Below, in pieces: positions 11,913 through 29,201 of a stretch of 64,000 nucleotides of DNA. The DNA lies in assembly GCA_028716245.1 (NCBI GenBank), contig JAQUQW010000002.1:421346-485345 (forward strand). The letters are read 5' to 3'. The translations under genes were made by a program, and so were the position numbers. This DNA is from Candidatus Omnitrophota bacterium (lineage in GTDB: Bacteria > Omnitrophota > Gorgyraeia > Gygaellales > Profunditerraquicolaceae). The notes beneath the pieces are model-generated. The model was not told the origin of the DNA, did not search any database, and saw only the letters and a list, made by a program, of their open reading frames with translations. Each line of letters begins with the position of its first letter. The first letter of the stretch is position 1.

Positions 11913-14138
11913 ATGGAAAAAATTACTCTTAATATTACCGGTATGCACTGTGCCTCGTGCGCAAGTAATATCGAAGCTGCCTTAAAAAGGTTTCCCGGGG
12001 TTTTTAGCGCCCGGGTTAATTTTGCTACAGAGAAGGCCTATATTGAATTCGAACCTCGAAAATTAAAGCTAGCGGATTTAATCAGAACGGTTGAAAAATC
12101 GGGATATAAGGCCTCTTTACCCGGACTATCCCCGGATAGAGAAAAAGAAATAAGGGAGAGGGAAGTAAGGAGCCTAAAAATAAAATTTATACTTTCGATA
12201 ACCTTATCCAGCATATTGATGTATATTGCCATGGGGCCATGTATAGGATTAGGTATCCATAAAACTATCATGGATAATATGGCCCTTATTCAATTCTTAT
12301 TGGCAAGCGGGGTCTTAATCTGCGGGTATCAGTTTTTTGCGCGCGGGATCTTTTCGCTGGTAAGGATTCATCGGGCGAATATGGATACACTGGTAGCTTT
12401 AGGCGTAGGCAGCGCCTATCTGTATAGTTTATTTGTCAGTATTAACATCTGGCTGGGCAATAAATCCTTTGGGATGAGAAATCTTTATTATGAGGTGGCT
12501 GCATTCCTGCTTACCTTTGTTCTATTGGGCAAGTATTTAGAGGCGATTACCAAGAGGAAAACTTCGCAAAGCATCAAGCGCTTATGGAATTTACGCCCCA
12601 AGACTGCGATAGTGATGCGTCAGGGGCAAGAAGTGGAAATTCCCGTTGAAGAATTGCTGGTTGGAGATACGGTGGTAGTGAAGCCCGGGCAGAGGATCCC
12701 GGTTGACGGCAAGATTACCGAAGGGTATTCCAGTATTGATGAATCGATGATCACCGGAGAGAGTATCCCCCTAGAGAAGACACTAAATGACAAGGTTATC
12801 GGCGGCTCGATAAACAAATACGGGACTTTTAAGTTCAAAGCCACAAAGGTAGGCAAAGACACTGCCTTGGCCCAGATCATAAAATTAGTTGAAGAGGCTC
12901 AAGGGTCAAAAGCCCCCATACAGGAATTAGCGGATAAGGTTGCCGCCATTTTTGTGCCTATGGTATTAATCATCGCTTTTGCTTCCTTCTTTATTTGGAT
13001 TTTCTTAGGTAAAGGTTTTATTTTCGGTTTAACTACTTTTATCGCGGTGTTAATTATTGCCTGTCCCTGTTCTCTGGGTCTGGCTACTCCCACCGCGGTT
13101 ATGGTGGGAACCGGAAAAGCGGCAGAAAATGGAATAATTATCAAGAACGCGGCCTCTTTACAGATAGCTGCAGAAATCGACAAAATTATTTTTGATAAAA
13201 CCGGAACCCTTACTGAGGGTAAGCCTAAGCTTACAGATATCGTAAGTTATATCGGGAATAAAGATGAGGTGTTAATGCTTGCCGCGTCCTTGGAGAAACC
13301 ATCCGGCCATGTCCTTTCCGATGCTATCGTTGGCGCTGCCAAAGAAAAAGGCATCTCTTTAACGCAGCTGCAGCAGTTTGAAACCATATCCGGCGAAGGG
13401 GTGGTGGGTAAAATTGAAGAGGGCCAAACGATCCTGGCGGGTAACCGCCGGCTTATGCAAGAGAGGGCAATTGATATAAAAATCGCAGCAGGGGATTTAG
13501 ATAGATTAGAGAAGCAGGGAAAGACCATAACCTTGGTTGCCAAAAATGATAGGCTTATCGGCTTAGTGGCAGTAAGGGACACTTTAAAGGAGTTTTCTAA
13601 AACCTTAATTGATAAACTGAAGAGAATGGGTAAGGATGTGATTATGATCACTGGCGACAATAAACGGACTGCCGTGGCAATTGCCAAAGAGATAGGTATT
13701 GAAAAGGTTCTAGCGGAAGTTTTGCCAAAAGACAAATTAGATGAAATTAAGAAATTACAGAACGAGGGTTTTAAAGTTGCTTTTGTGGGAGACGGAATCA
13801 ATGATGCCCCGGCCTTATCTCAAGCTAATTTGGGTATAGCTATCGGAAGCGGTACAGATGTAGCCATTGAATCAGGAGATATTATTTTAATTAAAGACGA
13901 CCTGCGTGATGTAGCAATGGCTATAGATCTATCGGGCTATGCAATGAGAAAGATAAGGCAGAATCTTTTCTGGGCATTCTTTTATAATATAATCGGGATC
14001 CCTATTGCCGCAGGAATACTCTATCCATTTAACGGCCTGCTGCTTAATCCGATGGTGGCCGGGGCGGCGATGGCCTTTAGTTCGGTGTCTGTGGTGTCGA
14101 ATTCCTTATTGATGAATAAATATAAGCCAAAAATGTAG
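11913..14138 (+). CDS. copA: Copper-translocating P1B-type ATPase
   Basis: N-terminal HMA 'GMHCASCASNIE', TM6 'CPC' ('IACPCSLGLATP'), phosphorylation site 'DKTGTLT' and hinge 'GDGINDAP'. Confidence 0.95.
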   Translation: MEKITLNITGMHCASCASNIEAALKRFPGVFSARVNFATEKAYIEFEPRKLKLADLIRTVEKSGYKASLPGLSPDREKEIREREVRSLKIKFILSITLSSILMYIAMGPCIGLGIHKTIMDNMALIQFLLASGVLICGYQFFARGIFSLVRIHRANMDTLVALGVGSAYLYSLFVSINIWLGNKSFGMRNLYYEVAAFLLTFVLLGKYLEAITKRKTSQSIKRLWNLRPKTAIVMRQGQEVEIPVEELLVGDTVVVKPGQRIPVDGKITEGYSSIDESMITGESIPLEKTLNDKVIGGSINKYGTFKFKATKVGKDTALAQIIKLVEEAQGSKAPIQELADKVAAIFVPMVLIIAFASFFIWIFLGKGFIFGLTTFIAVLIIACPCSLGLATPTAVMVGTGKAAENGIIIKNAASLQIAAEIDKIIFDKTGTLTEGKPKLTDIVSYIGNKDEVLMLAASLEKPSGHVLSDAIVGAAKEKGISLTQLQQFETISGEGVVGKIEEGQTILAGNRRLMQERAIDIKIAAGDLDRLEKQGKTITLVAKNDRLIGLVAVRDTLKEFSKTLIDKLKRMGKDVIMITGDNKRTAVAIAKEIGIEKVLAEVLPKDKLDEIKKLQNEGFKVAFVGDGINDAPALSQANLGIAIGSGTDVAIESGDIILIKDDLRDVAMAIDLSGYAMRKIRQNLFWAFFYNIIGIPIAAGILYPFNGLLLNPMVAGAAMAFSSVSVVSNSLLMNKYKPKM

Positions 14139-14159: not shown

Positions 14160-14187
14160 TTGACAATATATGCAAATTGTATATAAT
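14160..14187 (+). promoter_or_regulatory. Near-consensus sigma70 promoter (TTGACA-N16-TATAAT) in AT-rich leader with short direct repeats
   Basis: 'ttgaca' 14160-14165 and 'tataat' 14182-14187. 'attgtat' is repeated twice. RBS 'aggaag' precedes the ATG at 14237. A short hairpin 'gccggc' plus T-run follows the copA stop. Confidence 0.5.
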
Positions 14188-14236
14188 AATATCTAATTAC
14201 ATATAATTGTATTCAGAAAGTATATAGGAAGCATAT

Positions 14237-15784
14237 ATGAAGATACTGAACAAGAATACGATCAAACTGCTCAAGCTTTTTTATAAGCACCCCGAAAGCC
14301 AGTTTTACATTCAGCAGATCGGCCGGCTCTTGGGGAAGAAGCCCGGGGTATTCCAAAGGACTTTGAACAATCTCTATAAGGACGGTTTGCTTTTAAGCGA
14401 ATATAAGGCCAATGCAAGATTTTTCAGGATTAACAAAAATTATTATATCTATAATGAGCTAAAGAGCATCATCGATAAATCGGTTAAAATATTTTTGATT
14501 ATATTCTTATTCTCTGTCCCGTTTTTATATGCCGCAGAAAATCCGCTTACCTTAAGCCAGGTAATAGAGATCGCCTACAAAAACAACAAGGATATCCGGA
14601 TACAAGAGCAGGAGATCGCCGCCGCCGGAGCCGGTATACTGGGAGCTTCCAGTAATTTCCTGCCGCATCTGGATATTGATGCCGCCTATACGCGCAATGG
14701 AGCGGTTGCCGTTTCTACGGCCCAGGGTAAGAAAGATCCCGGGATATTTACCGGATATAAGAACGATAATTCTTTGGGAGCAAGTTTAAGCCAGATAATT
14801 TATAACGGCGGTTTTAATACCGCTAATCTTAACCAGGCAAAAGTCGCTTTGAATGTCCAGAAAGAAACCCTGCGGGCTAAAAAACTGGATATCGAATTTG
14901 AGGCAAAGCGGCTTTATTACGGTTTGCTGCTGGCTTATGAAACAGAGAGGATTGCTCAGGAGTTGGTAGATAATGCCAAGGATCACTATACGGATGTTAA
15001 AAATAGATATGGGCAGGGGACATCTTCGAAATTTGACCTGCTGCAGTCGGATGTCCAGGCATCTTTGCTTATCCCGGAACTGGTAAAAGCCCGGAATGCG
15101 GTGGATTTGATTAAAGCGGAGCTGAAAAAACTTTTAGCTTTTAAACAACAAGAGGAACTAGAGGTGGCGGATAAACAGCTGCATTATTCTTTACTTAAAA
15201 TCCAGGAGGATGATTTCTTAAAACAGGCTTATCTGAACAAGCCGGAAATGATTTTAAAGTCCCTGGGCATAGATATCAGCCGGTGGTCGATACAAATAGC
15301 AAAATCCGGATGGCTGCCGCAGGTAAACGCCAGTTTAGGCTATGATTATCGTTCAAATGATATAGGAAATATGTTTAATCGCCGGCATAATAATTGGAAT
15401 ACCGGAATTTCCTTATCCATGCCGCTATTTGACGGTTTTTCCACAAAAGCAAAAGTAGATGCTGCCCGGGCCCGCTATAGCCAGGCGCTCCTGACTAAAG
15501 AAAACCTGGTGGATCAGATTGCCGTTAGTGTCCGGCAGGCCTGCCTGGATTTAAAGCAGGCCGAAGCAATCATTAATTCGCAAAAGGATAATGTGGGAAA
15601 AGCAAGAGAGGCCTTAAGAATTGCCAATGTCAGTTATGATAACGGAGAGGCAAAGAACCTTGATGTGCTCGATGCGCAGGTCTCATTGGGCCAGGTGGAA
15701 ACAAATCTTTCACAGGGAATTTACGATTATCTTATGGCAAAAGCAGAACTTGACAGGGTCTTGGGTTTAAGTTTTATTCAGTAA
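14237..15784 (+). CDS. TolC-family outer-membrane efflux protein with an unusual ~80-aa N-terminal winged-helix-like extension
   Basis: Residues ~85-515 are a typical OEP/TolC with two repeats, after a signal-like 'VKIFLIIFLFSVPFLYAAE'. The first 80 aa 'LLKLFYKHPESQFYIQQIGRLLGKKPGVFQRTLNNLYKDGLL' look like a wHTH DNA-binding domain. The ATG at 14237 has a good RBS and no in-frame stop separates the two parts. Confidence 0.75.
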   Translation: MKILNKNTIKLLKLFYKHPESQFYIQQIGRLLGKKPGVFQRTLNNLYKDGLLLSEYKANARFFRINKNYYIYNELKSIIDKSVKIFLIIFLFSVPFLYAAENPLTLSQVIEIAYKNNKDIRIQEQEIAAAGAGILGASSNFLPHLDIDAAYTRNGAVAVSTAQGKKDPGIFTGYKNDNSLGASLSQIIYNGGFNTANLNQAKVALNVQKETLRAKKLDIEFEAKRLYYGLLLAYETERIAQELVDNAKDHYTDVKNRYGQGTSSKFDLLQSDVQASLLIPELVKARNAVDLIKAELKKLLAFKQQEELEVADKQLHYSLLKIQEDDFLKQAYLNKPEMILKSLGIDISRWSIQIAKSGWLPQVNASLGYDYRSNDIGNMFNRRHNNWNTGISLSMPLFDGFSTKAKVDAARARYSQALLTKENLVDQIAVSVRQACLDLKQAEAIINSQKDNVGKAREALRIANVSYDNGEAKNLDVLDAQVSLGQVETNLSQGIYDYLMAKAELDRVLGLSFIQ

Positions 15785-15838
15785 CACCCCGCGCTTATAA
15801 GGAATTGCGCGGGTGTGCCCTTGTGGGCAAAGGAGGCA
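15785..15838 (+). promoter_or_regulatory. Conserved double-hairpin leader motif (copy A) immediately upstream of the RBS
   Basis: 'CACCCCGCGC-ttataaggaatt-GCGCGGGTG' forms hairpin 1 and 'TGCCC-ttgt-GGGCA' forms hairpin 2, followed by 'AAGGAGG'. Related copies are at 22805 and 60605. Confidence 0.4.
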
Positions 15839-15842
15839 GGTA

Positions 15843-16676
15843 ATGAAAATAAAAATTAAACCGGCAGTATTTGTTTTAATTCTTATTCTTGCCGCGGGAA
15901 GTATCGTTGCCTATTTTTGGCAGGTGCGTCATTACAGCCGCGGAAGAATTAAAGTTTCAGGCAATATCGAAGGGGATGATGTCCGGCTTTCCTTTCGCGT
16001 ACAGGGCCAGATTCTGGATCTGCTTAGCGATGAAGGCCAAGTAGTTAAAATAGGCCAGCCGGTAGCCAGGTTAAATACTGATGAGCTGACTAAAATCCGC
16101 GATAATGCCGAAGGCGCGCTGAAAGCGGCGCAATACCAGTATTCGCTGGACAAGCTTGATTATGAACGGGCTGAAAATTTATATAAGGCCGGAGCAATAT
16201 CGATGCAACAAAGGGATGCCGCCAAGACTTTGGCCTCCGCGGATAAAGCGAATATGCAGGCGCTGCGCGCTTCTTTTGAATTAGCTGAAACCAGATTAGG
16301 TTTTGCGGAATTGGTTTCTCCGCTTAATGGTTTTGTGCTGGTCAAAAGCGCTTTAACCGGCGAGGTGGTGCAAATTGGGGCTCCGGTATTTACCGTAATT
16401 GATTTAAACAGCCTCTGGGTTACCGCTTATATCAATGAGACGGATTTAGGCAAAGTAAAACTTAATCAGGAAGCCGAAGTTGTTGCCGATACCTATCCCG
16501 GGAAAAAATACAAAGGAAGAGTTTCTTTTATTTCAAATGAGGCGGAGTTCACGCCGAAAACCATTCAGACCACGGAAGAAAGGGTAAAACTTGTTTATAG
16601 AATAAAAGTTGACGTGGATAATTCAAGCTTGGAGCTTAAACCCGGGATGCCGGCAGACGCCTATATAATCGAATAA
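15843..16676 (+). CDS. HlyD-family periplasmic adaptor (membrane fusion protein) of an ABC-2 exporter
   Basis: N-terminal TM, coiled-coil and 'biotinyl/lipoyl' hairpin 'GQVVKIGQPVARLNT'. RBS 'aaaggagg' precedes the ATG at 15843. The track ORF starting at 15813 is probably an over-extension. Confidence 0.8.
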   Translation: MKIKIKPAVFVLILILAAGSIVAYFWQVRHYSRGRIKVSGNIEGDDVRLSFRVQGQILDLLSDEGQVVKIGQPVARLNTDELTKIRDNAEGALKAAQYQYSLDKLDYERAENLYKAGAISMQQRDAAKTLASADKANMQALRASFELAETRLGFAELVSPLNGFVLVKSALTGEVVQIGAPVFTVIDLNSLWVTAYINETDLGKVKLNQEAEVVADTYPGKKYKGRVSFISNEAEFTPKTIQTTEERVKLVYRIKVDVDNSSLELKPGMPADAYIIE

Positions 16677-16677
16677 A

Positions 16678-17409
16678 ATGATTACCATAAAAGCAAGCGC
16701 TCTTACCAGGAAATTCGGTGACAATACCGCGGTGAACAGCCTGAACCTTGAAATTGAGGAGGGTGAGATCTTCGGGCTGGTCGGGCCGGACGGGGCCGGA
16801 AAGACAACGACTATGCGGCTTTTAACCGGCATACTTGATCCGACTTCCGGGGAAGGCTGGGTTTATAATAAGCACATAGTCAAGGAATCCGAGGCGCTGA
16901 AAGAAAACATTGCTTATATGTCTCAGCGTTTCGGGCTGTATGAGGAATTGACTGTCCTGGAGAACATTAATTTTTATGCCGATGTGTTTTGCATTCCGAA
17001 GAAGGAAAGAGAAGCGGTAATTGAAAGGCTGCTTGGTTTTTCCGGGCTTACTCCGTTTAAACAGAGGCTTGCCGGGAAATTATCCGGCGGCATGAAGCAG
17101 AAACTGGGGCTTTCCTGCGCCTTGATCCATACCCCGAAAGTTTTATTCCTGGATGAGCCGACCAACGGGGTTGACCCGGTTTCCCGCCGGGATTTCTGGA
17201 AAATACTTTATGATTTGCTGAAAGAAAAGGTAACTATTCTTTATTCCACCTCTTACCTTGATGAGGCTGAACGCTGCCGCAGGGTCGGTTTGATCAATAA
17301 AGGCCGCCTGCTTAAATGCGATACCCCGGATAATATTAAAAAAGAATGTAATGTTGCGACACTGGAGCAGGCTTTTATCAAGATCATTAATGATTATGAA
17401 TCCCGGTAA
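16678..17409 (+). CDS. ABC transporter ATP-binding protein (ABC-2 type)
   Basis: Walker A 'GPDGAGKTT', signature 'LSGGMKQKL' and Walker B 'LFLDEPT'. Confidence 0.85.
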   Translation: MITIKASALTRKFGDNTAVNSLNLEIEEGEIFGLVGPDGAGKTTTMRLLTGILDPTSGEGWVYNKHIVKESEALKENIAYMSQRFGLYEELTVLENINFYADVFCIPKKEREAVIERLLGFSGLTPFKQRLAGKLSGGMKQKLGLSCALIHTPKVLFLDEPTNGVDPVSRRDFWKILYDLLKEKVTILYSTSYLDEAERCRRVGLINKGRLLKCDTPDNIKKECNVATLEQAFIKIINDYESR

Positions 17410-18361
17410 CGATAGTAATAATATCGCGGTAAAGGTGGAGGACCTTGAAAAAAAGTTCGGCAGCTTTACCGCCGTCAACCAAATTAACTTTGAGGTCAAG
17501 CAGGGGGAGATCTTCGGCTTTCTTGGCCCAAACGGGGCGGGAAAATCCACGACCATCAGGATGCTCTGTGGTATTTATTCGCCGACATCCGGAAGAGGCA
17601 CGGTAGGCGGTTATGATATAGTCAAAGAGCAGGATAAGATCAAGGAGCATATCGGTTACATGTCACAGAAATTTTCCCTTTACGATGACCTGACTGTCGA
17701 GGAGAATATCGATTTTTACAGCCGTATTTACAATATCCCCGCGGCAGAGAGGGAAAAACGCAAAGAGGAGACGATAAGGTTAGCCGGCATCGAAGGGTTC
17801 CGCAAGAACCTCACCAGCACCCTTTCCGGGGGATGGAAGCAGCGCCTGGCGCTGGGGTGCGCGATCATCCACCAGCCGAAAATTATTTTTCTGGATGAGC
17901 CGACTTCCGGGGTGGATCCGATAACCCGCAATAATTTCTGGAATATTATCAAGGGGATGGCCAAAGAAGGGAAGACAGTTTTTGTGACTACCCACTATAT
18001 GGAGGAGGCAGAAAACTGCAACCGCCTGGTGATGATTTATCATGGGACGATGATTGCCATGGGCAGCCCCGAAGAAATGAAAATCAGGATTATGAAAAAT
18101 GATATTCTTGAGGTGATCATGCCGCAGGCGGAAAACTGGCTGGAAAAAATTTCGCAACTGGAGTCGGTCAAGGAAAGCGCGCTTTTTGGGGTCAACATCC
18201 ACGCGGTAGTTACCCAGGCGCAAAAAGCAGCCCAGGAGATAACCAGCCTTCTTGAGCAGGGAAAAGTCAGCGGATATTCCGTAAAAAAGATCAAGGCCTC
18301 CCTTGAAGATGTTTTTGTTTCTTTGATCGAGAATTATGACGCGCAGCATAAAGAAAAATGA
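17396..18361 (+). CDS. ABC transporter ATP-binding protein (second ATPase, ABC-2 type)
   Basis: Walker A 'GPNGAGKST', signature 'LSGGWKQRL' and Walker B 'IFLDEPT'. The likely start is M at 17390 or 17396, overlapping the previous stop. Confidence 0.85.
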   Translation: MNPGNDSNNIAVKVEDLEKKFGSFTAVNQINFEVKQGEIFGFLGPNGAGKSTTIRMLCGIYSPTSGRGTVGGYDIVKEQDKIKEHIGYMSQKFSLYDDLTVEENIDFYSRIYNIPAAEREKRKEETIRLAGIEGFRKNLTSTLSGGWKQRLALGCAIIHQPKIIFLDEPTSGVDPITRNNFWNIIKGMAKEGKTVFVTTHYMEEAENCNRLVMIYHGTMIAMGSPEEMKIRIMKNDILEVIMPQAENWLEKISQLESVKESALFGVNIHAVVTQAQKAAQEITSLLEQGKVSGYSVKKIKASLEDVFVSLIENYDAQHKEK

Positions 18362-19491
18362 ATTTAAAAAGGATCGGCGCCATAGCAAATAAGGAATTTA
18401 TCCAGATTAAACGCGACCCCCGTTCCCTGGGGCTGGCCCTGGTAATACCGGTAGTGCTTTTATTAATTTTTGGGTACGGGCTTTCATTGGATATCGATAA
18501 GGTGCCTACCGTCATTTGGAACCAGGATGCCTCTTCCCAGCTTACGCGTAATTTCCTGCTCAATTTCAAATACTCGAAATATTTTAAAATAATCAGGTAT
18601 ACCGATAATTACCGGGATATCGAACACCTGATTGATAACGGCCAGGCAATGATGGCCCTGGTTATCCCCAAAGATTTTTCGCATTATATCGAGTCGGGAA
18701 AAGCTGCGCCGCTACAACTATTGGTGGACGGCAGCGATTCCAATACCGCAACTGTCGCCATGGGCTATGTGCGGGCTGTGGTTGCCAAATATAACCTGGA
18801 TTTACTCGTTGAGACGTTCCGTCAGCAGGGTTTAGTTCCCCGGAAATCAGCCGAGCTGCGTCCGAGAGTATGGTTTAATATGGGTTTAAATAGCCGCTGG
18901 TTTATCGTGCCGGGAGTAATCGCGATGATTATTATGATTATTGCCGCGTTGCTTACCTCAATCTGTATAGCCCGCGAATGGGAAAGAGGCACAATGGAGC
19001 AATTGGTTTCTACTCCCGTAAAACCCCGGGAGCTGATCATCGGAAAATTCCTGCCTTATTTTATCATTGGTTTCTTTGATCTTTTTATAGCGGTAGTTAT
19101 GGCCAGGTTCCTTTTTGGCGTCCCTTTTCAGGGAAGTTATTTTACACTCATTGTTTTAAGCGCGCTCTTTTTAACCGGCGCCTTATCCCAGGGTATTTTG
19201 ATTTCTACCGTTGGCCGGACGCAATTATTAGCCAGCCAGCTGGCAATGCTTTCTACCTTTATACCGACGATGCTTTTATCCGGTTTTATCTATCCGATCT
19301 TCAATATGCCGCCGCTGGTCCAAGCGATTACCTATCTTATCCCCGCCCGTTATTACATCGTCATCTTGCGGGGATTATTCTTAAAAGGTAACGGGATGGA
19401 GGTAATGTGGAATGAGGCTCTTTTTTTGGCGTTATTTGCTTTTTTGATGTTTGGGTTGGCGATAAATAAATTCAAGAAGAAGGTGGCCTGA
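18358..19491 (+). CDS. ABC-2 family transporter permease
   Basis: N-terminal TM, large periplasmic loop, then a 5-TM ABC-2 membrane domain. The gene is translationally coupled to the ATPase. Confidence 0.8.
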   Translation: MNLKRIGAIANKEFIQIKRDPRSLGLALVIPVVLLLIFGYGLSLDIDKVPTVIWNQDASSQLTRNFLLNFKYSKYFKIIRYTDNYRDIEHLIDNGQAMMALVIPKDFSHYIESGKAAPLQLLVDGSDSNTATVAMGYVRAVVAKYNLDLLVETFRQQGLVPRKSAELRPRVWFNMGLNSRWFIVPGVIAMIIMIIAALLTSICIAREWERGTMEQLVSTPVKPRELIIGKFLPYFIIGFFDLFIAVVMARFLFGVPFQGSYFTLIVLSALFLTGALSQGILISTVGRTQLLASQLAMLSTFIPTMLLSGFIYPIFNMPPLVQAITYLIPARYYIVILRGLFLKGNGMEVMWNEALFLALFAFLMFGLAINKFKKKVA

Positions 19492-19494
19492 TTT

Positions 19495-20622
19495 ATGTTT
19501 GAGCGGATCAAAGCTGTTTTGATCAAAGAATTTAAGCAGGTCCTGCGCGACCCAAGGATGAAGACGGTTATTTTTATCTCTCCGCTTATTCAGATAATCA
19601 TCTTTGGCTATGCCGCCAATAAAGATATCAATTATATCCCCACCGCTATTTACGATCAGGATAATACCAAGGAGAGCCGTAACCTCCTGCATAAATTTAC
19701 TTACTCCGGGTACTTTGTCCCTAAATATTACATCGATGACCAAAGCCAACAGGATGGGCTAATCGATAAGGGGCTGGTAAATGCGGTTATCTGCATTGAC
19801 CGGGGTTTTAGCCGTAATCTTAATGCCGATAAACCGGCCAATATCCAATTAATCCTGGACGGATCGGATTCAAATACAGCGATGATCATTATGGGTTATG
19901 CCAATACGATTGTCAGTAAATATCAGTATGACCTGTTCAAGGATGAAGCTGCGGCAAAAGGGTTAACCGCGCAGTGGCCCGGTGTTGACCTTAGGGAGCG
20001 GGCCTGGTTTAACGATAATCTTATATCGAGAAATTATTACCTGCCGGGAGTCATCGCCTCGATCGTGACGATAATGTCGCTTTTACTGACGGCCATGGCT
20101 ATCGTCAGAGAAAAAGAGATCGGCACCATGGAGCAGTTGATCGTCAGTCCCTTAAAGCCCATTGAGCTTATTTTAGGAAAGCTCCTGCCTTTTGGCGTAA
20201 TCGCGCTTATGCAATTTACGTTTATTGCTTCCCTGGGCGTATTCTGGTTCCATATACCGTTTAGAGGAAGCCTGCTTTTATTGACGCTGGCTACAATAAT
20301 ATACTTATTTACTAGTTTGGGGGCAGGCCTGTTTATTTCAACCATAGCCTCAACCCAGCAGGAGGCAATGATGTCGGTTTTCCTGTTTTATATGCCGACA
20401 ATACTGTTGTCCGGGTTTGCTTATCCCATCGCGAATATGCCGGAGGTTATCCGCTGGTTTACCTTGCTCAACCCGATGCGTTATTTTTTAGTGGTTATCA
20501 GGGGGATATTCTTAAAAGGCACAGGGATAGAGGTGCTTTTGGACCAGCTTATCCCGCTGGTTATCTTTGGGCTGGTCGTCATTACCTTAAGTACCTTGAG
20601 GTTCAGGAAAAAACTTACTTGA
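19495..20622 (+). CDS. ABC-2 family transporter permease (paralogue)
   Basis: Paralogue of the previous permease with the same topology ('[14 protein letters not shown]'). Together the cluster has a YbhFSR-like 2 ATPase + 2 permease arrangement. Confidence 0.8.
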
Positions 20623-22185: not shown

Positions 22186-22818
22186 TTGGCTAATGAATTA
22201 AAATATCTGTCCGGAAAAGACGTTGTCGTATTAGGTATCCCGCGGGGAGGTATTATTATAGCCGCCGAAGTTGCCCGCCTGCTGCAGGCTAAATTAGATA
22301 TCGTGCTTTCCCGTAAGATAGGGGCTCCGGGCAATCCTGAACTGGCGATCGGCTCGGTTGGTGAAAATGGAAAACTTTTTCTTAATGATGGCCTGGTTTC
22401 CCGGGTAGGCGCGGATAAGAATTATATCGAATCAGAAAAAATACGGCAGTTAGCCGAGATTAAAAATCGGATCAAAAAGTGCCGGCAGATTAAGCCCAAA
22501 GTTTCTTTAGAAGGGCAAACAGTTATTGTTATTGATGATGGGATAGCAACCGGCGCGACAATGCAAGCAGCGCTTTTAGCTGCCGGCCGCCAAAAGGCGA
22601 AAAAAGTTATTGCCGCGGTTCCGGTGGCTGCTAAAGAATCCATTGTTTTGTTGGCTAATTATGCCGATGAACTGATAGTGTTAAGAGTGCCGGAGTTTTT
22701 GGGATCAATTGGGCAGTTCTACGAAAATTTTGGTCAAACTTCCGAAGGAGAAGTTTTAAGCGCGTTGAGAGAAGCGGCAGAAAAAGAAAAACAATTAGGT
22801 AAGACACCCCGCGCTTAG
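22186..22818 (+). CDS. Phosphoribosyltransferase-family protein (type I PRTase fold)
   Basis: PRPP-binding loop 'VIVIDDGIATGATMQAA'. About 210 aa. Confidence 0.7.
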   Translation: MANELKYLSGKDVVVLGIPRGGIIIAAEVARLLQAKLDIVLSRKIGAPGNPELAIGSVGENGKLFLNDGLVSRVGADKNYIESEKIRQLAEIKNRIKKCRQIKPKVSLEGQTVIVIDDGIATGATMQAALLAAGRQKAKKVIAAVPVAAKESIVLLANYADELIVLRVPEFLGSIGQFYENFGQTSEGEVLSALREAAEKEKQLGKTPRA

Positions 22819-22857
22819 CGGAATTGCGCGGGTGTTGTCTTCGTAGACAAGGAGGCC
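22805..22857 (+). promoter_or_regulatory. Conserved double-hairpin leader motif (copy B)
   Basis: 'CACCCCGCGC-ttagcggaatt-GCGCGGGTG' overlaps the PRTase stop, and 'TTGTCT-tcgt-AGACAA' is followed by 'AAGGAGG'. Hairpin 2 carries compensatory changes relative to copies A and C. Confidence 0.4.
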
Positions 22858-22860
22858 AAG

Positions 22861-22971
22861 ATGTGTAAAACCTGCGGTTGTTCACCCTGCAAGTGCGGAA
22901 AGAAAATAGTAAAAGGGGTATGCGAGGGCTGCGGTAAAAAAAGCGATGAATGCAGTTGTCTTAAGAAATAG
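22861..22971 (+). CDS. Small cysteine-rich peptide (36 aa, metallothionein-like)
   Basis: My own translation gives MCKTCGCSPCKCGKKIVKGVCEGCGKKSDECSCLKK, with 11 Cys in 36 aa. RBS 'aaggagg' lies 7 nt upstream. The ORF is absent from the track because of its size. Confidence 0.5.
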   Translation: MCKTCGCSPCKCGKKIVKGVCEGCGKKSDECSCLKK

Positions 22972-23543: not shown

Positions 23544-24197
23544 ATGAACGTAAATTCATTAATTGAAGATAAATTCATTATGGAAAAACAGCACCAATCC
23601 TTAAACCGCAGGGATAGGGACAGGTTGTTACGGCAGGCAGATATCTTGAGGGCGGCAGAGCATGTTTTTGCCTTAAAGGGATATCATGAAGCAACCATGC
23701 AGGATATTGCCAAAGAGGCCGAGTATGGCACCGGCACGGTTTATTTATATTTTAAGGATAAGGACGCGCTTTATTTTTCTTTATTTGAGCAGAAGTTTAA
23801 AGATTTGTTACTTATGCTAAAAGAAGAAACGGCTAAGGCTAGCGATGCCAAGAGCAAACTTGAAATTTTTGTGTTGGAAAAACTTTCTTTTTTTGAAAGA
23901 AACCAGGATTTCTTCCGCATCTTTATTTCAGAGAGCAGCAAGTTCCAGGCAATGAAAGCCAGCAAGTATTCCAAATCTTCGGTGATCACCCAGCATCGGG
24001 AGCTGGTTAATGAATTAATCAAAACCGGCCAAGGCCAGAGAATAATCAGGAGCGATTTTCATTTTACCCAGATTGCCGATATTTTCACTTCGATGTTTAT
24101 GGCCGTAGTTTTTGATTGGTTCCGGGACGGGTCAAAAAACGTGAAACAGATGTCGGCTTTTATTTTGGATATGTTTTTTAACGGGGCCGGAAAATAA
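23544..24197 (+). CDS. TetR/AcrR-family transcriptional regulator
   Basis: HTH '[29 protein letters not shown]'. The upstream region has an inverted repeat 'ttaaaatat...atattttaa' that overlaps a putative promoter. Confidence 0.8.
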
Positions 24198-25541
24198 ATG
24201 CAGTGTAAACTCACTAAAATCTTCCTATTTATTTTTATAGCTTGTTTCTGCCGGGCTGCCTGTGCCGGAGAAGGGGGCAGGCTGATTACTATTTCCCAGG
24301 GAATCCGGATGGTGCTTAAGGATAGTCGCTTGATAAAAATAGCGCTGCCGGATAATGAGATGGCTTATCAGGATTCCTTGATTGCCCGTTCGGCGCTCCT
24401 GCCGCAGCTAAACGCAAACCTGATCCAGACATTTAATCAATATCAACCGGCAATGAAATTCAACTCTAGCAGCGTGAAGACTGCGGATAAAGACGCCTTG
24501 GCTTACGGTTTTGATGTTTATCAGACCCTTTTTGATTTCGGCAAAAGTCTTGCCAACTGGCGGGCTTCGAATAAATTGTTCAAAGCCCAAAAAGCGCATA
24601 CCCAGAGCGTAATCAGGGTGGCGACGCTGGAATTTATCATCGCCTATTTTAATTTATTGGAAGCCGACCGGATGATCGCGGTCTTCCAAAAAGAAGCCGA
24701 CAGCCTGACCGCCTATCTTGGCGATATCGAGCATCTTTATGAGCAGGGGGTTGTGGTCAAAAACGATCTGTTGCCGGCTAAAGTCAGGTTGGCGGACATA
24801 AAACAGAAGCTGATTGCTGCAGTCAATGACCGGGAGATTGCCGCCTCTAGATTGAACAACATTCTTGGTTTACCGTTGAGAGAAAAAATTATGGTTCAGG
24901 ATATCAAAATGCAGCCTCCCAAGTTTCCGGAAATGCAGGATGCCTGGAATATGGCGCAGGTGCAAAGGCCGGAAGTTGCTTTCTACAGCGACCAGATAAA
25001 TTCTTCATTTTTTAGCCAAAGGGCAAAAGCAGTTGAGAATTTTCCCGCGCTTTTTGTTGATTTGGGATACGCGCATACCCAGAATCAATTCTTAACCCAT
25101 GAAGACAATGCTTCGATCCAACTGGGGGCCAAGATGAATCTTTATGACGGAGGCGCAACTCAAGCCGGGTTACGTAAGGAAAGATCCCTGCAGACCAAGC
25201 TTAATGAGCAGAAGAGCAAAATTATTGAAGACATCAAGTTTGAGATCGAGGACAGTTACTTCAGTTTAAAGAATGCCTGTGAAAAAGTAGCTGTGGCAAC
25301 CGAAGCGCTTGTCCAGGCGGAGGAGAACGTGCGTTTTTATCGGGTCAAATATCAAGCCGGAAGCGCGACTCCGACAGAGGTGCTTGATGCTATAACCATG
25401 CAGACAAAAGCCCAGACTAATTATTACAGCGATGATTACGAATTAAAACGCAGTTACGCCAAACTTATGTATTCTATAGGGATTGATCTGGGATTAATTT
25501 ATGAAAGAATGGAGAGTGAGAAAAATGGGGCCACAAAATAA
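24198..25541 (+). CDS. TolC-family outer-membrane efflux protein
   Basis: Signal peptide and OEP repeats. The gene abuts the TetR stop. Confidence 0.8.
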   Translation: MQCKLTKIFLFIFIACFCRAACAGEGGRLITISQGIRMVLKDSRLIKIALPDNEMAYQDSLIARSALLPQLNANLIQTFNQYQPAMKFNSSSVKTADKDALAYGFDVYQTLFDFGKSLANWRASNKLFKAQKAHTQSVIRVATLEFIIAYFNLLEADRMIAVFQKEADSLTAYLGDIEHLYEQGVVVKNDLLPAKVRLADIKQKLIAAVNDREIAASRLNNILGLPLREKIMVQDIKMQPPKFPEMQDAWNMAQVQRPEVAFYSDQINSSFFSQRAKAVENFPALFVDLGYAHTQNQFLTHEDNASIQLGAKMNLYDGGATQAGLRKERSLQTKLNEQKSKIIEDIKFEIEDSYFSLKNACEKVAVATEALVQAEENVRFYRVKYQAGSATPTEVLDAITMQTKAQTNYYSDDYELKRSYAKLMYSIGIDLGLIYERMESEKNGATK

Positions 25542-27926: not shown

Positions 27927-29201
27927 ATGTGTAGATGTTTTAAGCTATTCTTAATTTTATTTTTATTTTGTTTGGTTTCTTCCGGCAGAGCAGAAGCAGA
28001 AGAGGTGCTTACTTGGGGTGATTGTATCAAGGAGGCAGCCAAGAACCACCCGGATTTAATCGCCGCCCAGGAAAGCGTCAAACAATCCCGGGCTTCTAAG
28101 CAGCAAACCGCCAGCGGTTTATTTCCTCAAATAACCGCGGATGCCAGCGGAGCTACCGCTAAAACCGCAGGCAGTTTAGGCAGCAAAACTGCCGATACGT
28201 ATAGTTATGGAGTAACCGGAACACAGCTTATCTTCGACGGGCTTAAGACAATTAATAATGTGAGAGCGGCTTCAGAAACTATATCCGCGGCAAAGCAGGG
28301 ATTTAAATTTACTTCCACTACGGTCAGATTCAGGCTGCGTTCGGCATTCATCGATCTCCTGAAAGCCCAAGAGATGCTGCGGATTACCGAAGAGATTTAT
28401 AATATCAGGAGGGATAATTTAGAGTTGATTACTTTGCGTTACGGGTCCGGGCTTGAACATAAAGGCGCTTTATTAACCGCGGAGGCGGATTTAGCGCAGG
28501 CAAAATACGGGATCTCCCAAACCAAAAGAGAGGTTGAGGTTGCCCAGAGGGAAATGGTCAAAGAGATGGGCAGGAAGCAACCGACAGCAATGTATGCTCA
28601 GGGGGATTTCCGGGTAAAAGACAGCGCTTTAGAAAAACCTGATTTTCCGGCTTTAGCAAAAAATAATCCTTCTTTACAGCAGCTTATCGCCCAAAAACGT
28701 TCAGCCGAATTTAGTTTAAAATCCGCTTACGCTAATTTTTTCCCGCAGCTTACCGGCAGCGCCGGCGCCAATAGGACCGGGGCCCATTGGACTCCCACAG
28801 GAGACCAGTACAATTTAGGGCTTGCTCTATCTCTGCCTTTATTTGAAGGCGGATTAAGAATCGCCCAGGTATCCCAAGCCAGCGCTTTAGTCAAGCAACT
28901 GCAGGAAAATGAAAGAAGCACTCTAGACGGTGTTATTTTGACATTACAGCAAACCTGGGCAACTTTACAGGATACGCTGGAGAATGTTAATGTGCAGTAT
29001 AAAGTATTAATTGCCGCGCAAGAGCGTTCCAAAATTGCCCAGGCGCAATATTCAATCGGATTAGTTAGCTTTGATAACTGGACGATCATTGAGGATAACC
29101 TGGTAAAAGCCAAAAGTAATTATTTAGATGCCCAGGCGGCCGCGCTATTAGCCGAAGCAAAATGGATTCAGGCGAAAGGAGAAACTTTAGAATATGACTA
29201 A
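27927..29201 (+). CDS. TolC-family outer-membrane efflux protein
   Basis: Signal peptide 'LFLILFLFCLVSSGRAEA' and two OEP repeats. Confidence 0.8.
   Translation: MCRCFKLFLILFLFCLVSSGRAEAEEVLTWGDCIKEAAKNHPDLIAAQESVKQSRASKQQTASGLFPQITADASGATAKTAGSLGSKTADTYSYGVTGTQLIFDGLKTINNVRAASETISAAKQGFKFTSTTVRFRLRSAFIDLLKAQEMLRITEEIYNIRRDNLELITLRYGSGLEHKGALLTAEADLAQAKYGISQTKREVEVAQREMVKEMGRKQPTAMYAQGDFRVKDSALEKPDFPALAKNNPSLQQLIAQKRSAEFSLKSAYANFFPQLTGSAGANRTGAHWTPTGDQYNLGLALSLPLFEGGLRIAQVSQASALVKQLQENERSTLDGVILTLQQTWATLQDTLENVNVQYKVLIAAQERSKIAQAQYSIGLVSFDNWTIIEDNLVKAKSNYLDAQAAALLAEAKWIQAKGETLEYD

Follow-up and report, generated by a model that had tools for sequence, protein, structure and literature searches.

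The DNA analysed here is a 64,000-nucleotide stretch of the genome of a Candidatus Omnitrophota bacterium (assembly GCA_028716245.1, contig JAQUQW010000002.1, positions 421,346 to 485,345), hereafter called the window, and the subject of this study is a gene on its forward strand (14237–15784) that joins a DNA-binding domain to an outer-membrane channel protein. The open reading frame (ORF) begins with ATG, encodes 515 amino acids (aa) followed by a stop codon, and comprises three parts: a basic winged helix-turn-helix (wHTH) domain (aa 1–84, 14237–14488), predicted to be cytoplasmic; a signal-peptide-like stretch, predicted to be an internal Sec-type signal peptide (aa ~81–99, 14477–14533); and a complete TolC, the mature TolC-family outer-membrane channel protomer (aa 100–515, 14534–15781). 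These assignments draw on the ORF, Pfam, NCBIfam, an AlphaFold2 (AF2) model and the orthologues. Ahead of the gene lie a sigma-70 promoter (14160–14187, forward strand), in which the −35 element TTGACA (14160–14165) and the −10 element TATAAT (14182–14187) are separated by a 16-nt spacer and match the consensus at 12 of 12 positions, and a ribosome-binding site (RBS), AGGAAG (14226–14231), read from the sequence 5 nt before the ATG.

The original prediction, made from the letters of this DNA, had described a strong promoter, a well-placed RBS and a wHTH-like domain preceding a signal-like segment and TolC. All of this holds, the last by structure prediction, Pfam and the layout of the junction, and the N-terminal peptide that it quoted is exact. 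It had also judged the combination topologically senseless and had left three explanations open, namely a novel N-terminal anchor or regulatory domain, a frameshift or fusion of two genes, and an internal translation start. In the following, we argue that the gene is likely to be a genuine fusion, maintained under selection, of a small autoregulatory wHTH repressor with tolC, standing first in a TolC–HlyD–ABC-type efflux operon, and that a single precursor probably gives rise to the efflux channel as well as to the operon's own regulator.

Parts of the precursor

The C-terminal part carries two tandem OEP repeats (Pfam PF02321, E 5.6e-72 over two stretches, the best at aa 325–510), and the NCBIfam TolC models align from aa ~98–106 and extend over aa ~98–510. 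Because the type_I_sec_TolC model TIGR01844 is matched with E 7.6e-48 but with 163.5 bits against a trusted cut-off of 225, the protein is best described as a member of the TolC superfamily and not of the TIGR01844 subfamily. The AF2 model of the full protein (predicted local distance difference test (pLDDT) 88.5) has the TolC protomer fold of four beta-strands and long alpha-hairpins. Foldseek matched it to the TolC proteins of E. coli, Klebsiella and Salmonella, to CusC and to OprM with E-values of 1e-19 to 1e-22; E. coli TolC (1ek9), 7ng9, 5bun and 3pik are among the matches, at E 1e-20 to 1e-22 and with a template-modelling (TM) score of 0.75. The TolC part is of full length and both beta-barrel repeats are conserved. 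In its two OEP repeats, its fold and its neighbouring adaptor and transporter genes, the system resembles the outer-membrane factors of tripartite ABC efflux (E. coli TolC 1EK9; operons like MacAB or YbhGFSR). However, known TolC proteins have a plain N-terminal signal peptide, whereas in the present protein the signal peptide comes only after an 84-aa DNA-binding domain.

Over aa 1–86, no Pfam family rose above its threshold, the best being MarR_2 with E 0.047 and 14.3 bits against a cut-off of 27, and NCBIfam gave no match; the domain is recognized by none of the curated models MarR, MarR_2, HTH_5 and HTH_20. A profile search of the PDB returned 3r0a at E 0.017. AF2 predicts a winged helix with pLDDT of about 87–97 (helices at aa 6–17, 25–32 and 36–48, strands at 52–57 and 60–65, and a further helix from aa 72), that is, the H1-H2-H3 and beta-wing fold of wHTH repressors, and the top Foldseek neighbours of aa 1–84 are all such repressors (3r0a, HlyU, AntR, MepR, CzrA and Sso10a-2). 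As modelled, the N-terminal domain falls structurally among the wHTH proteins of the MarR/ArsR/Sso10a class, although it belongs to no curated family, and it is not simply the long anchor that had been considered in its place. Its predicted recognition helix (aa 36–48) is KPGVFQRTLNNLY; among 114 aligned fused proteins, G37, F39 and Q40 are invariant and R41 is nearly so, and in alignments that include stand-alone forms G37 and Q40 remain invariant, with F39 and R41 nearly invariant. The net charge of the domain, about +12, fits both DNA binding and the positive-inside rule. Compared with small autorepressors of the MarR, ArsR-SmtB and Sso10a classes, with which it shares the fold, the domain lacks a ligand- or metal-binding extension, falls below the thresholds of the curated models and is covalently linked to an exported protein. 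No other copy of the domain was found within the window.

The junction reads KSVK-IFLIIFLFSVPFLYA-AENPL and is arranged like a Sec signal peptide into n-, h- and c-regions, with KSVK as the n-region, IFLIIFLFSVPFLY as the h-region and LYA as the c-region; the predicted signal peptidase I site lies between A99 and A100 (between 14533 and 14534, SVPFLYA/AE, the slash marking the cut). This segment, complete with its (−3,−1) site, sits inside the precursor (aa 81–99) and not at its N-terminus. Across the 114 fused proteins, the uncharged stretch is mostly 11–18 aa long (median 15) with K or R ahead of it, and h-regions of 20–25 aa occur in some orthologues. In 108 of the 114, a Pro or Gly that breaks the helix is combined with a small-x-small motif, and a site obeying the (−3,−1) rule is followed by polar or acidic residues (YA/AE, FA/QD, SA/QE, GFC/EE). 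Residues 98–99 align to positions 21–22 of the E. coli TolC model, which we take to be the end of its 22-residue signal peptide; the pLDDT of the AF2 model drops below 50 precisely at aa 98–100; and the hydrophobic stretch runs without any linker into the first TolC helix, H1. With the barrel in the outer membrane, the geometry of TolC (1EK9) would not allow an uncleaved N-terminus to remain in the inner one. Taken from its layout, the junction is quite likely a cleavable Sec signal peptide that is indeed cut. A basic cytoplasmic domain, a hydrophobic stretch and a (−3,−1) site would together give the ordinary N-in/C-out topology, and the objection that a DNA-binding fold on a secreted protein makes no topological sense was therefore mistaken.

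Many fused orthologues (P0105, P0115, P0122, P0124, P0128 and others) end the h-region in G-F-C or G-L-C followed by EE, and this Cys could mark position −1 of a signal peptidase I site or else be lipidated in an atypical way. No Cys is present near LYA/AE in the window protein, and the GFC/EE of the orthologues is not a canonical lipobox, with F at −1.

Conservation and origin of the fusion

When the full protein was used as query, more than 110 clusters of homologous proteins were found, nearly all of them from Omnitrophota, of 512–557 aa and with 57–94% identity over ~100% of the query, and in the alignment of these homologues the wHTH, the junction and TolC lie in a single frame throughout. 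When one genome per GTDB species was scanned with a profile of the wHTH, 80 loci were obtained, in 53 of which the domain is fused in frame to TolC, including the complete chromosome of Ca. Velamenicoccus archaeovorus LiM (NZ_CP019384.1). The two closest relatives, P0025 (94% identity) and P0026 (89%), come from independent assemblies and share this in-frame junction. The N-terminal extension is thus present in the orthologues, and the fusion is almost certainly real, in frame and conserved across the phylum. The database names of the fused genes say just 'TolC family protein'.

The opposite reading is that a sequencing or assembly frameshift or a mis-called start has merged what are really two genes, or that TolC is translated from the in-frame TTG at codon 87 (14495–14497), which does exist, with the upstream frame serving as a short upstream ORF (uORF). 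Its best support comes from the nearest metagenome-assembled genome (MAG) at NCBI, STD1_64 (loci L001/L003 on JAQURC010000003.1; protein P0001), in which a 1-nt deletion in the run AAAATATTTTT (window 14484–14490) places a stop exactly at the junction and a TolC fragment is called from a TTG; in addition, a two-gene arrangement does occur in three genomes. However, L001, which is 86–90% identical to the window at the nucleotide level, is the sole close relative with a stop at the junction, and it also lacks 5.76 kb corresponding to window 14783–20540, that is, most of tolC, hlyD, both ABC ATPases and both ABC-2 permeases. Because of the 1-nt deletion together with this operon deletion, we regard L001 as a decayed locus, in contrast to the in-frame P0025 and P0026. 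An internal start fares no better: 33 of 52 fused genes have no in-frame ATG, GTG or TTG in the interval from −8 to +3 codons around the hydrophobic stretch, and a Shine-Dalgarno (SD)-like motif near this stretch is found in none of the 52, so internal initiation cannot be how these organisms make TolC, and a start at the TTG of the window, with no SD-like motif upstream, would yield a signal peptide devoid of its charged n-region. We therefore rejected both the frameshift or assembly artefact, on account of the in-frame clusters, the junction of P0025 and P0026, the 53 fused loci and the decay of L001, and the internal start or uORF, for which neither start codon nor SD-like motif is conserved; an artefact of either kind is highly improbable.

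Between the window and L001, the wHTH differs by 20 synonymous and no non-synonymous changes; the domain is under purifying selection. In L001, the 1-nt deletion ends the wHTH ORF exactly at the domain boundary and the protein is still 100% identical in the wHTH; this identity, despite the 20 synonymous changes, suggests retention as a stand-alone regulator.

Three loci (L002, L022 and L078) have the regulator and tolC as two genes: a wHTH protein of 82–89 aa ending in a real stop codon, a short spacer with an SD motif, a tolC that has a start codon to itself and encodes a classic signal peptide (for example, MMKKINLCFALIFLISQTGLC/QE), and then the hlyD-ABC genes. Separate genes with a stop between them had been named in the original prediction as what would overturn the fusion. 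Occurring in only these three loci, they instead represent the ancestral state and reveal how the fusion originated. Since the stand-alone wHTH proteins end exactly where the hydrophobic stretch of the fused forms starts, the fusion came about through loss of the stop codon and the spacer, and the K-rich C-terminal helix of the repressor was turned into the n-region of the signal peptide. Of the three explanations first considered, therefore, a regulatory domain and a joining of a regulator gene with tolC are supported in this evolutionary sense, and a frameshift, a mis-start and a uORF are not.

The wHTH family is far commoner as the N-terminal module of ~192-aa proteins with an MNT-type nucleotidyltransferase domain, whose genes are followed by an overlapping HEPN gene in the layout of a toxin–antitoxin module. 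The HEPN-MNT antitoxins share the sequence family of the window domain; their nucleotidyltransferase domain (Polbeta/NTP_transf_2) and adjacent HEPN gene are absent from the window protein, which differs from them, too, by its link to an exported protein. MNT-fused examples are L049 (3001–4000) and about 20 similar loci (L020, L030, L033 and others) from Omnitrophota and other phyla. In a library of 50% representatives, the family gave 2374 matches, mostly MNT-fused forms of ~180–200 aa, and no new exported fusion partner was identified with confidence in this search. Other partners of the wHTH are fn3/purple-acid-phosphatase-N repeats (P0170, 417 aa), a MEDS sensory domain (P0188, 283 aa) and an N6/N4 DNA methylase (P0206, 315 aa), and the module is therefore promiscuous.

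Operators, domain swap and operon

Arrays of a 17-bp palindrome, ATATGC-N5-GCATAT (consensus ATATGCAAAAAGCATAT), lie upstream of nearly all members of the wHTH family, whether fused to TolC, encoded by a separate gene or fused to MNT; the HEPN-MNT modules carry these operators in their own promoters. At no more than 2 mismatches, 145 sites were found in 14.8 kb of 150-nt upstream regions versus 33 in 415 kb elsewhere in the loci, which corresponds to 9.8 and 0.08 sites per kb, respectively, a difference of about 120-fold. The sequence TTGAC(A) is present in 68 of 77 related loci, and the first operator starts 8–9 nt after TTGAC in 59 of 66, so that its right half forms part of the −10 element. 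Successive sites are spaced by 21 bp (43 cases), 41–42 bp (19) or 61–63 bp (7), which places them on the same face of the helix. This layout is, as predicted from the sites, that of a dimeric repressor occluding its own promoter.

In the window, the predicted operator O1 (14168–14184, strandless; ATATGCAAATTGTATAT) lies between the −35 and −10 elements with its right half overlapping the latter. It is the only match with at most 1 mismatch in the 64 kb, and no further operator target was found in the window at this threshold. Two overlapping degenerate copies (14209–14236, likewise strandless), GTATTCAGAAAGTATAT at 14209–14225 and GTATATAGGAAGCATAT at 14220–14236, follow, the second of them covering the RBS; each has 3 mismatches and is weak individually, but the copy at 14209 lies 41 bp from O1 and fits the 21/41–42/61–63 bp phasing. 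The equivalent of a degenerate copy in L001 is GTATGCAAAAAGTATAT. The gene thus has a palindromic operator, or operators, overlapping its own promoter, as wHTH repressors do. Very probably, judging from the fold, the conserved recognition helix and these sites, the wHTH binds DNA and represses its own promoter.

In four TolC clusters (P0082, P0094, P0120 and P0129), an XRE/Cro-type HTH (Pfam HTH_3, E 2e-12) takes the place of the wHTH directly before the hydrophobic stretch, in an orthologous operon; such genes lie at L083 5001–6536, L084 2501–4027 and L085 2501–4030. Their TolC parts are 71–73% identical to that of the window and nest among the wHTH forms, and abundant stand-alone regulators of 63–67 aa reach up to 81% identity with the fused XRE domain. 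The XRE promoters contain no ATATGC-N5-GCATAT site but 2–3 copies of another palindrome, ACTATTATAATAGT, that is, A(C/G)TATTATAATAGT, placed constantly at −77 (over the −10 element) and −21. Conversely, the 78 wHTH loci have 149 sites of the wHTH type and 0 of the XRE type, compared with 0 and 2–3, respectively, in the three XRE loci. The operator type therefore follows the type of the fused domain. A fusion of a DNA-binding domain with TolC has thus arisen, or been remodelled, at least twice, and this natural domain swap is the strongest argument that the fused domain acts as a DNA-binding autoregulator. Among the databases, only JGI has a label for the XRE form, 'outer membrane protein TolC/DNA-binding XRE family transcriptional regulator'.

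The fusion gene lies downstream of a CopA-type P-type ATPase gene (11913–14138) and is the first of a run of genes on the forward strand, the rest of which (15843–20622) encodes an HlyD-family membrane-fusion protein (15843–16676; Pfam HlyD_D23 and HlyD_3), two ABC ATPases (16678–17409 and 17351–18361) and two ABC-2 permeases (18358–19491 and 19495–20622), the last four assigned as ORFs. The adaptor and inner-membrane transporter genes that are expected next to a member of the TolC/OEP family are therefore found directly downstream, and the hlyD-ABC order is conserved 3′ of fused, separate and XRE-fused tolC genes alike. The two other TolC paralogues of the window (24198–25541 and 27927–29201) have ordinary N-terminal signal peptides. 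The first of these starts at 24198 with zero spacer after a TetR-family regulator that ends at 24197 (window 23544–25541), and a change of one codon at this boundary would make another regulator–TolC fusion.

The intergenic region immediately ahead of the SD and ATG of hlyD contains a double-hairpin element (15786–15835, forward strand; −18.5 kcal/mol, z −2.9), composed of ACACCCCGCGC...GCGCGGGTG and a second short hairpin with compensatory changes. A second copy in the window (22806–22850), whose second hairpin is compensatory, precedes the SD and start of a gene at 22861, and two tandem copies lie before a small Cys-rich ORF in L083 (4600–4692). The copies fold at −18 to −21 kcal/mol with z of −2.8 to −4.0, only 4 are present across the 540 kb of sequence examined, and an Rfam search of the window, including this element, gave no match.

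A proposed export-coupled regulator and its alternatives

We propose the following model for the fused precursor. The basic wHTH would be translated first and would remain in the cytoplasm, and the 15-residue hydrophobic stretch would act as an internal Sec/SRP signal sequence that targets the precursor in the N-in/C-out orientation. TolC would then be translocated, and signal peptidase I would cut after LYA, freeing mature TolC for assembly in the outer membrane and leaving in the inner membrane a fragment of ~99 aa that consists of the wHTH and the signal peptide. The active repressor may be the tethered precursor, this remnant or a soluble form of ~85 aa that a site-2 or signal-peptide protease sets free and that would match the ancestral stand-alone protein in size. 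A dimer of the wHTH would bind the phased 17-bp palindromes over the −35/−10 promoter and the RBS and repress the operon, with the outcome that one repressor module is produced per exported TolC. All of these steps have known parallels: RsiV and RsiP are cut at site 1 by signal peptidase, the signal peptides left behind after processing are substrates of S2P, and regulation by membrane-tethered proteins is exemplified by ToxR and TcpP (PMC10202637). The full idea, that a complete transcription factor is built into the signal peptide of an outer-membrane protein, that transcription is set by the count of exported TolC and that such export-coupled regulation evolved at least twice, is one that we put forward only tentatively.

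Several observations weigh against the proposed autorepressor model. The promoter of the window has one strong operator only, a weaker set than is the norm in the family; copies with 3 mismatches are individually at chance level (49 found versus 38.6 expected in the window); and 7 of the 53 fused loci lack any site with up to 2 mismatches. The signal-peptide call was made with simple in-house rules (an uncharged stretch, K/R and a (−3,−1) site), and the XRE forms have no positive n-region directly before the h-region (...KVDDLL/VVTVLILF, the slash here marking the start of the h-region). A folded 80-aa domain before the signal peptide may hinder export, and the benefit of tethering a repressor is not evident.

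An alternative that dispenses with cleavage takes the hydrophobic stretch as a stable anchor, so that the protein would be a membrane regulator like ToxR or CadC whose TolC-like periplasmic part senses, or docks to, the pump and is not a free channel. A cytoplasmic wHTH, a single hydrophobic helix and a periplasmic domain do make up a ToxR-type architecture, AF2 models one continuous helix over aa 72–92, and the longest orthologue h-regions would suit an anchor. Nevertheless, we find it unlikely, as the median h-region has 15 aa, the Pro/Gly and small-x-small signature is kept in 108 of 114 proteins, TolC retains its full length with both barrel repeats, and the TolC of the separate-gene loci has a normal cleavable signal peptide; moreover, with no linker, a tethered N-terminus could not reach the position of the TolC equatorial domain in the 1EK9 geometry. 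It is equally doubtful that the N-terminal domain no longer binds DNA and has become an export module, which slows or targets translocation or docks a chaperone, while a paralogous regulator binds the palindromes. Extended signal-peptide regions do exist in autotransporters, and the stand-alone and MNT-fused paralogues of the phylum could act in trans. Against this, the fused forms have kept their recognition-helix residues with little or no change, two unrelated DNA-binding folds have been recruited to the identical position, and the operator type switches between wHTH and XRE in orthologous operons, which would be difficult to account for if another protein bound the palindromes. A further and still less probable idea is transertion with dual products, in which the full-length precursor would act mainly in cis as a nascent chain: during co-translational export, its wHTH would bind to the promoter of its own gene and tether the locus to the membrane, and the remnant would soon be degraded and have no further function. 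The wHTH leaves the ribosome first, the distance from the operators to the start codon is below 80 nt, and cells of the phylum are very small (PMC10066038), so that the nucleoid would always be near the membrane; however, this idea is purely speculative, and being compatible with the same evidence it is not separated by the sequence data from the fused autorepressor that we favour.

The favoured model has partial counterparts in known systems. MMTV Rem/Env provides one from eukaryotic viruses: its signal peptide p14 is an RNA-binding factor released after signal-peptidase cleavage. In such viral long signal peptides, as proposed here, a nucleic-acid binder sits on an N-terminal extension of the signal peptide and one precursor gives a regulator and an exported protein; they operate at the eukaryotic ER, bind RNA and not DNA, and have no relation to the window protein in sequence or fold. 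With ToxR, CadC and TcpP, the precursor shares an N-terminal cytoplasmic wHTH, one hydrophobic segment, a periplasmic C-terminal part and, as proposed, both control exerted at the membrane and proteolysis (PMC10202637). Those regulators, however, have an OmpR-type wHTH, a stable transmembrane anchor and a periplasmic sensor, whereas the window protein has no Pfam match to Trans_reg_C, neither a stable anchor nor a sensor domain is indicated by its short h-region, cleavage motif and full TolC, and its periplasmic part is a complete channel that needs to be cut off to function. RsiV and RsiP are similar, at the level of sequence, in having a cytoplasmic regulatory module before a signal-peptide-like segment with a signal-peptidase site, and their cleavage remnant is a substrate of intramembrane proteolysis (PMC10202637), as we predict for the remnant here. 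They are anti-sigma factors, partnered with an ECF sigma factor, with ligand-gated cleavage, whereas the window protein has a wHTH and no anti-sigma domain, and its cleavage would presumably be constitutive and coupled to export.

Literature searches on HTH–TolC fusions, Omnitrophota TolC and bacterial regulators borne on signal peptides found nothing relevant. As far as we found, therefore, the parts, namely TolC channels, small autorepressors, signal peptidase and tethered regulators, are known, and a DNA-binding domain on the cleavable signal peptide of an outer-membrane protein is apparently undescribed. The finding affects annotation, as it concerns both the 'TolC family protein' labels and a wHTH family for which there is no Pfam or NCBIfam model, and the operator motif offers a defined DNA target for tests, the short modules being testable in E. 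coli. The architecture is conserved across a largely uncultured phylum, in which two unrelated HTH folds occur in parallel, each with matching operators. If the model is true, the fusion would be a compact feedback device that ties transcription of an efflux operon to completed protein export, and it would represent a bacterial counterpart of the functional long signal peptides of eukaryotic viruses.

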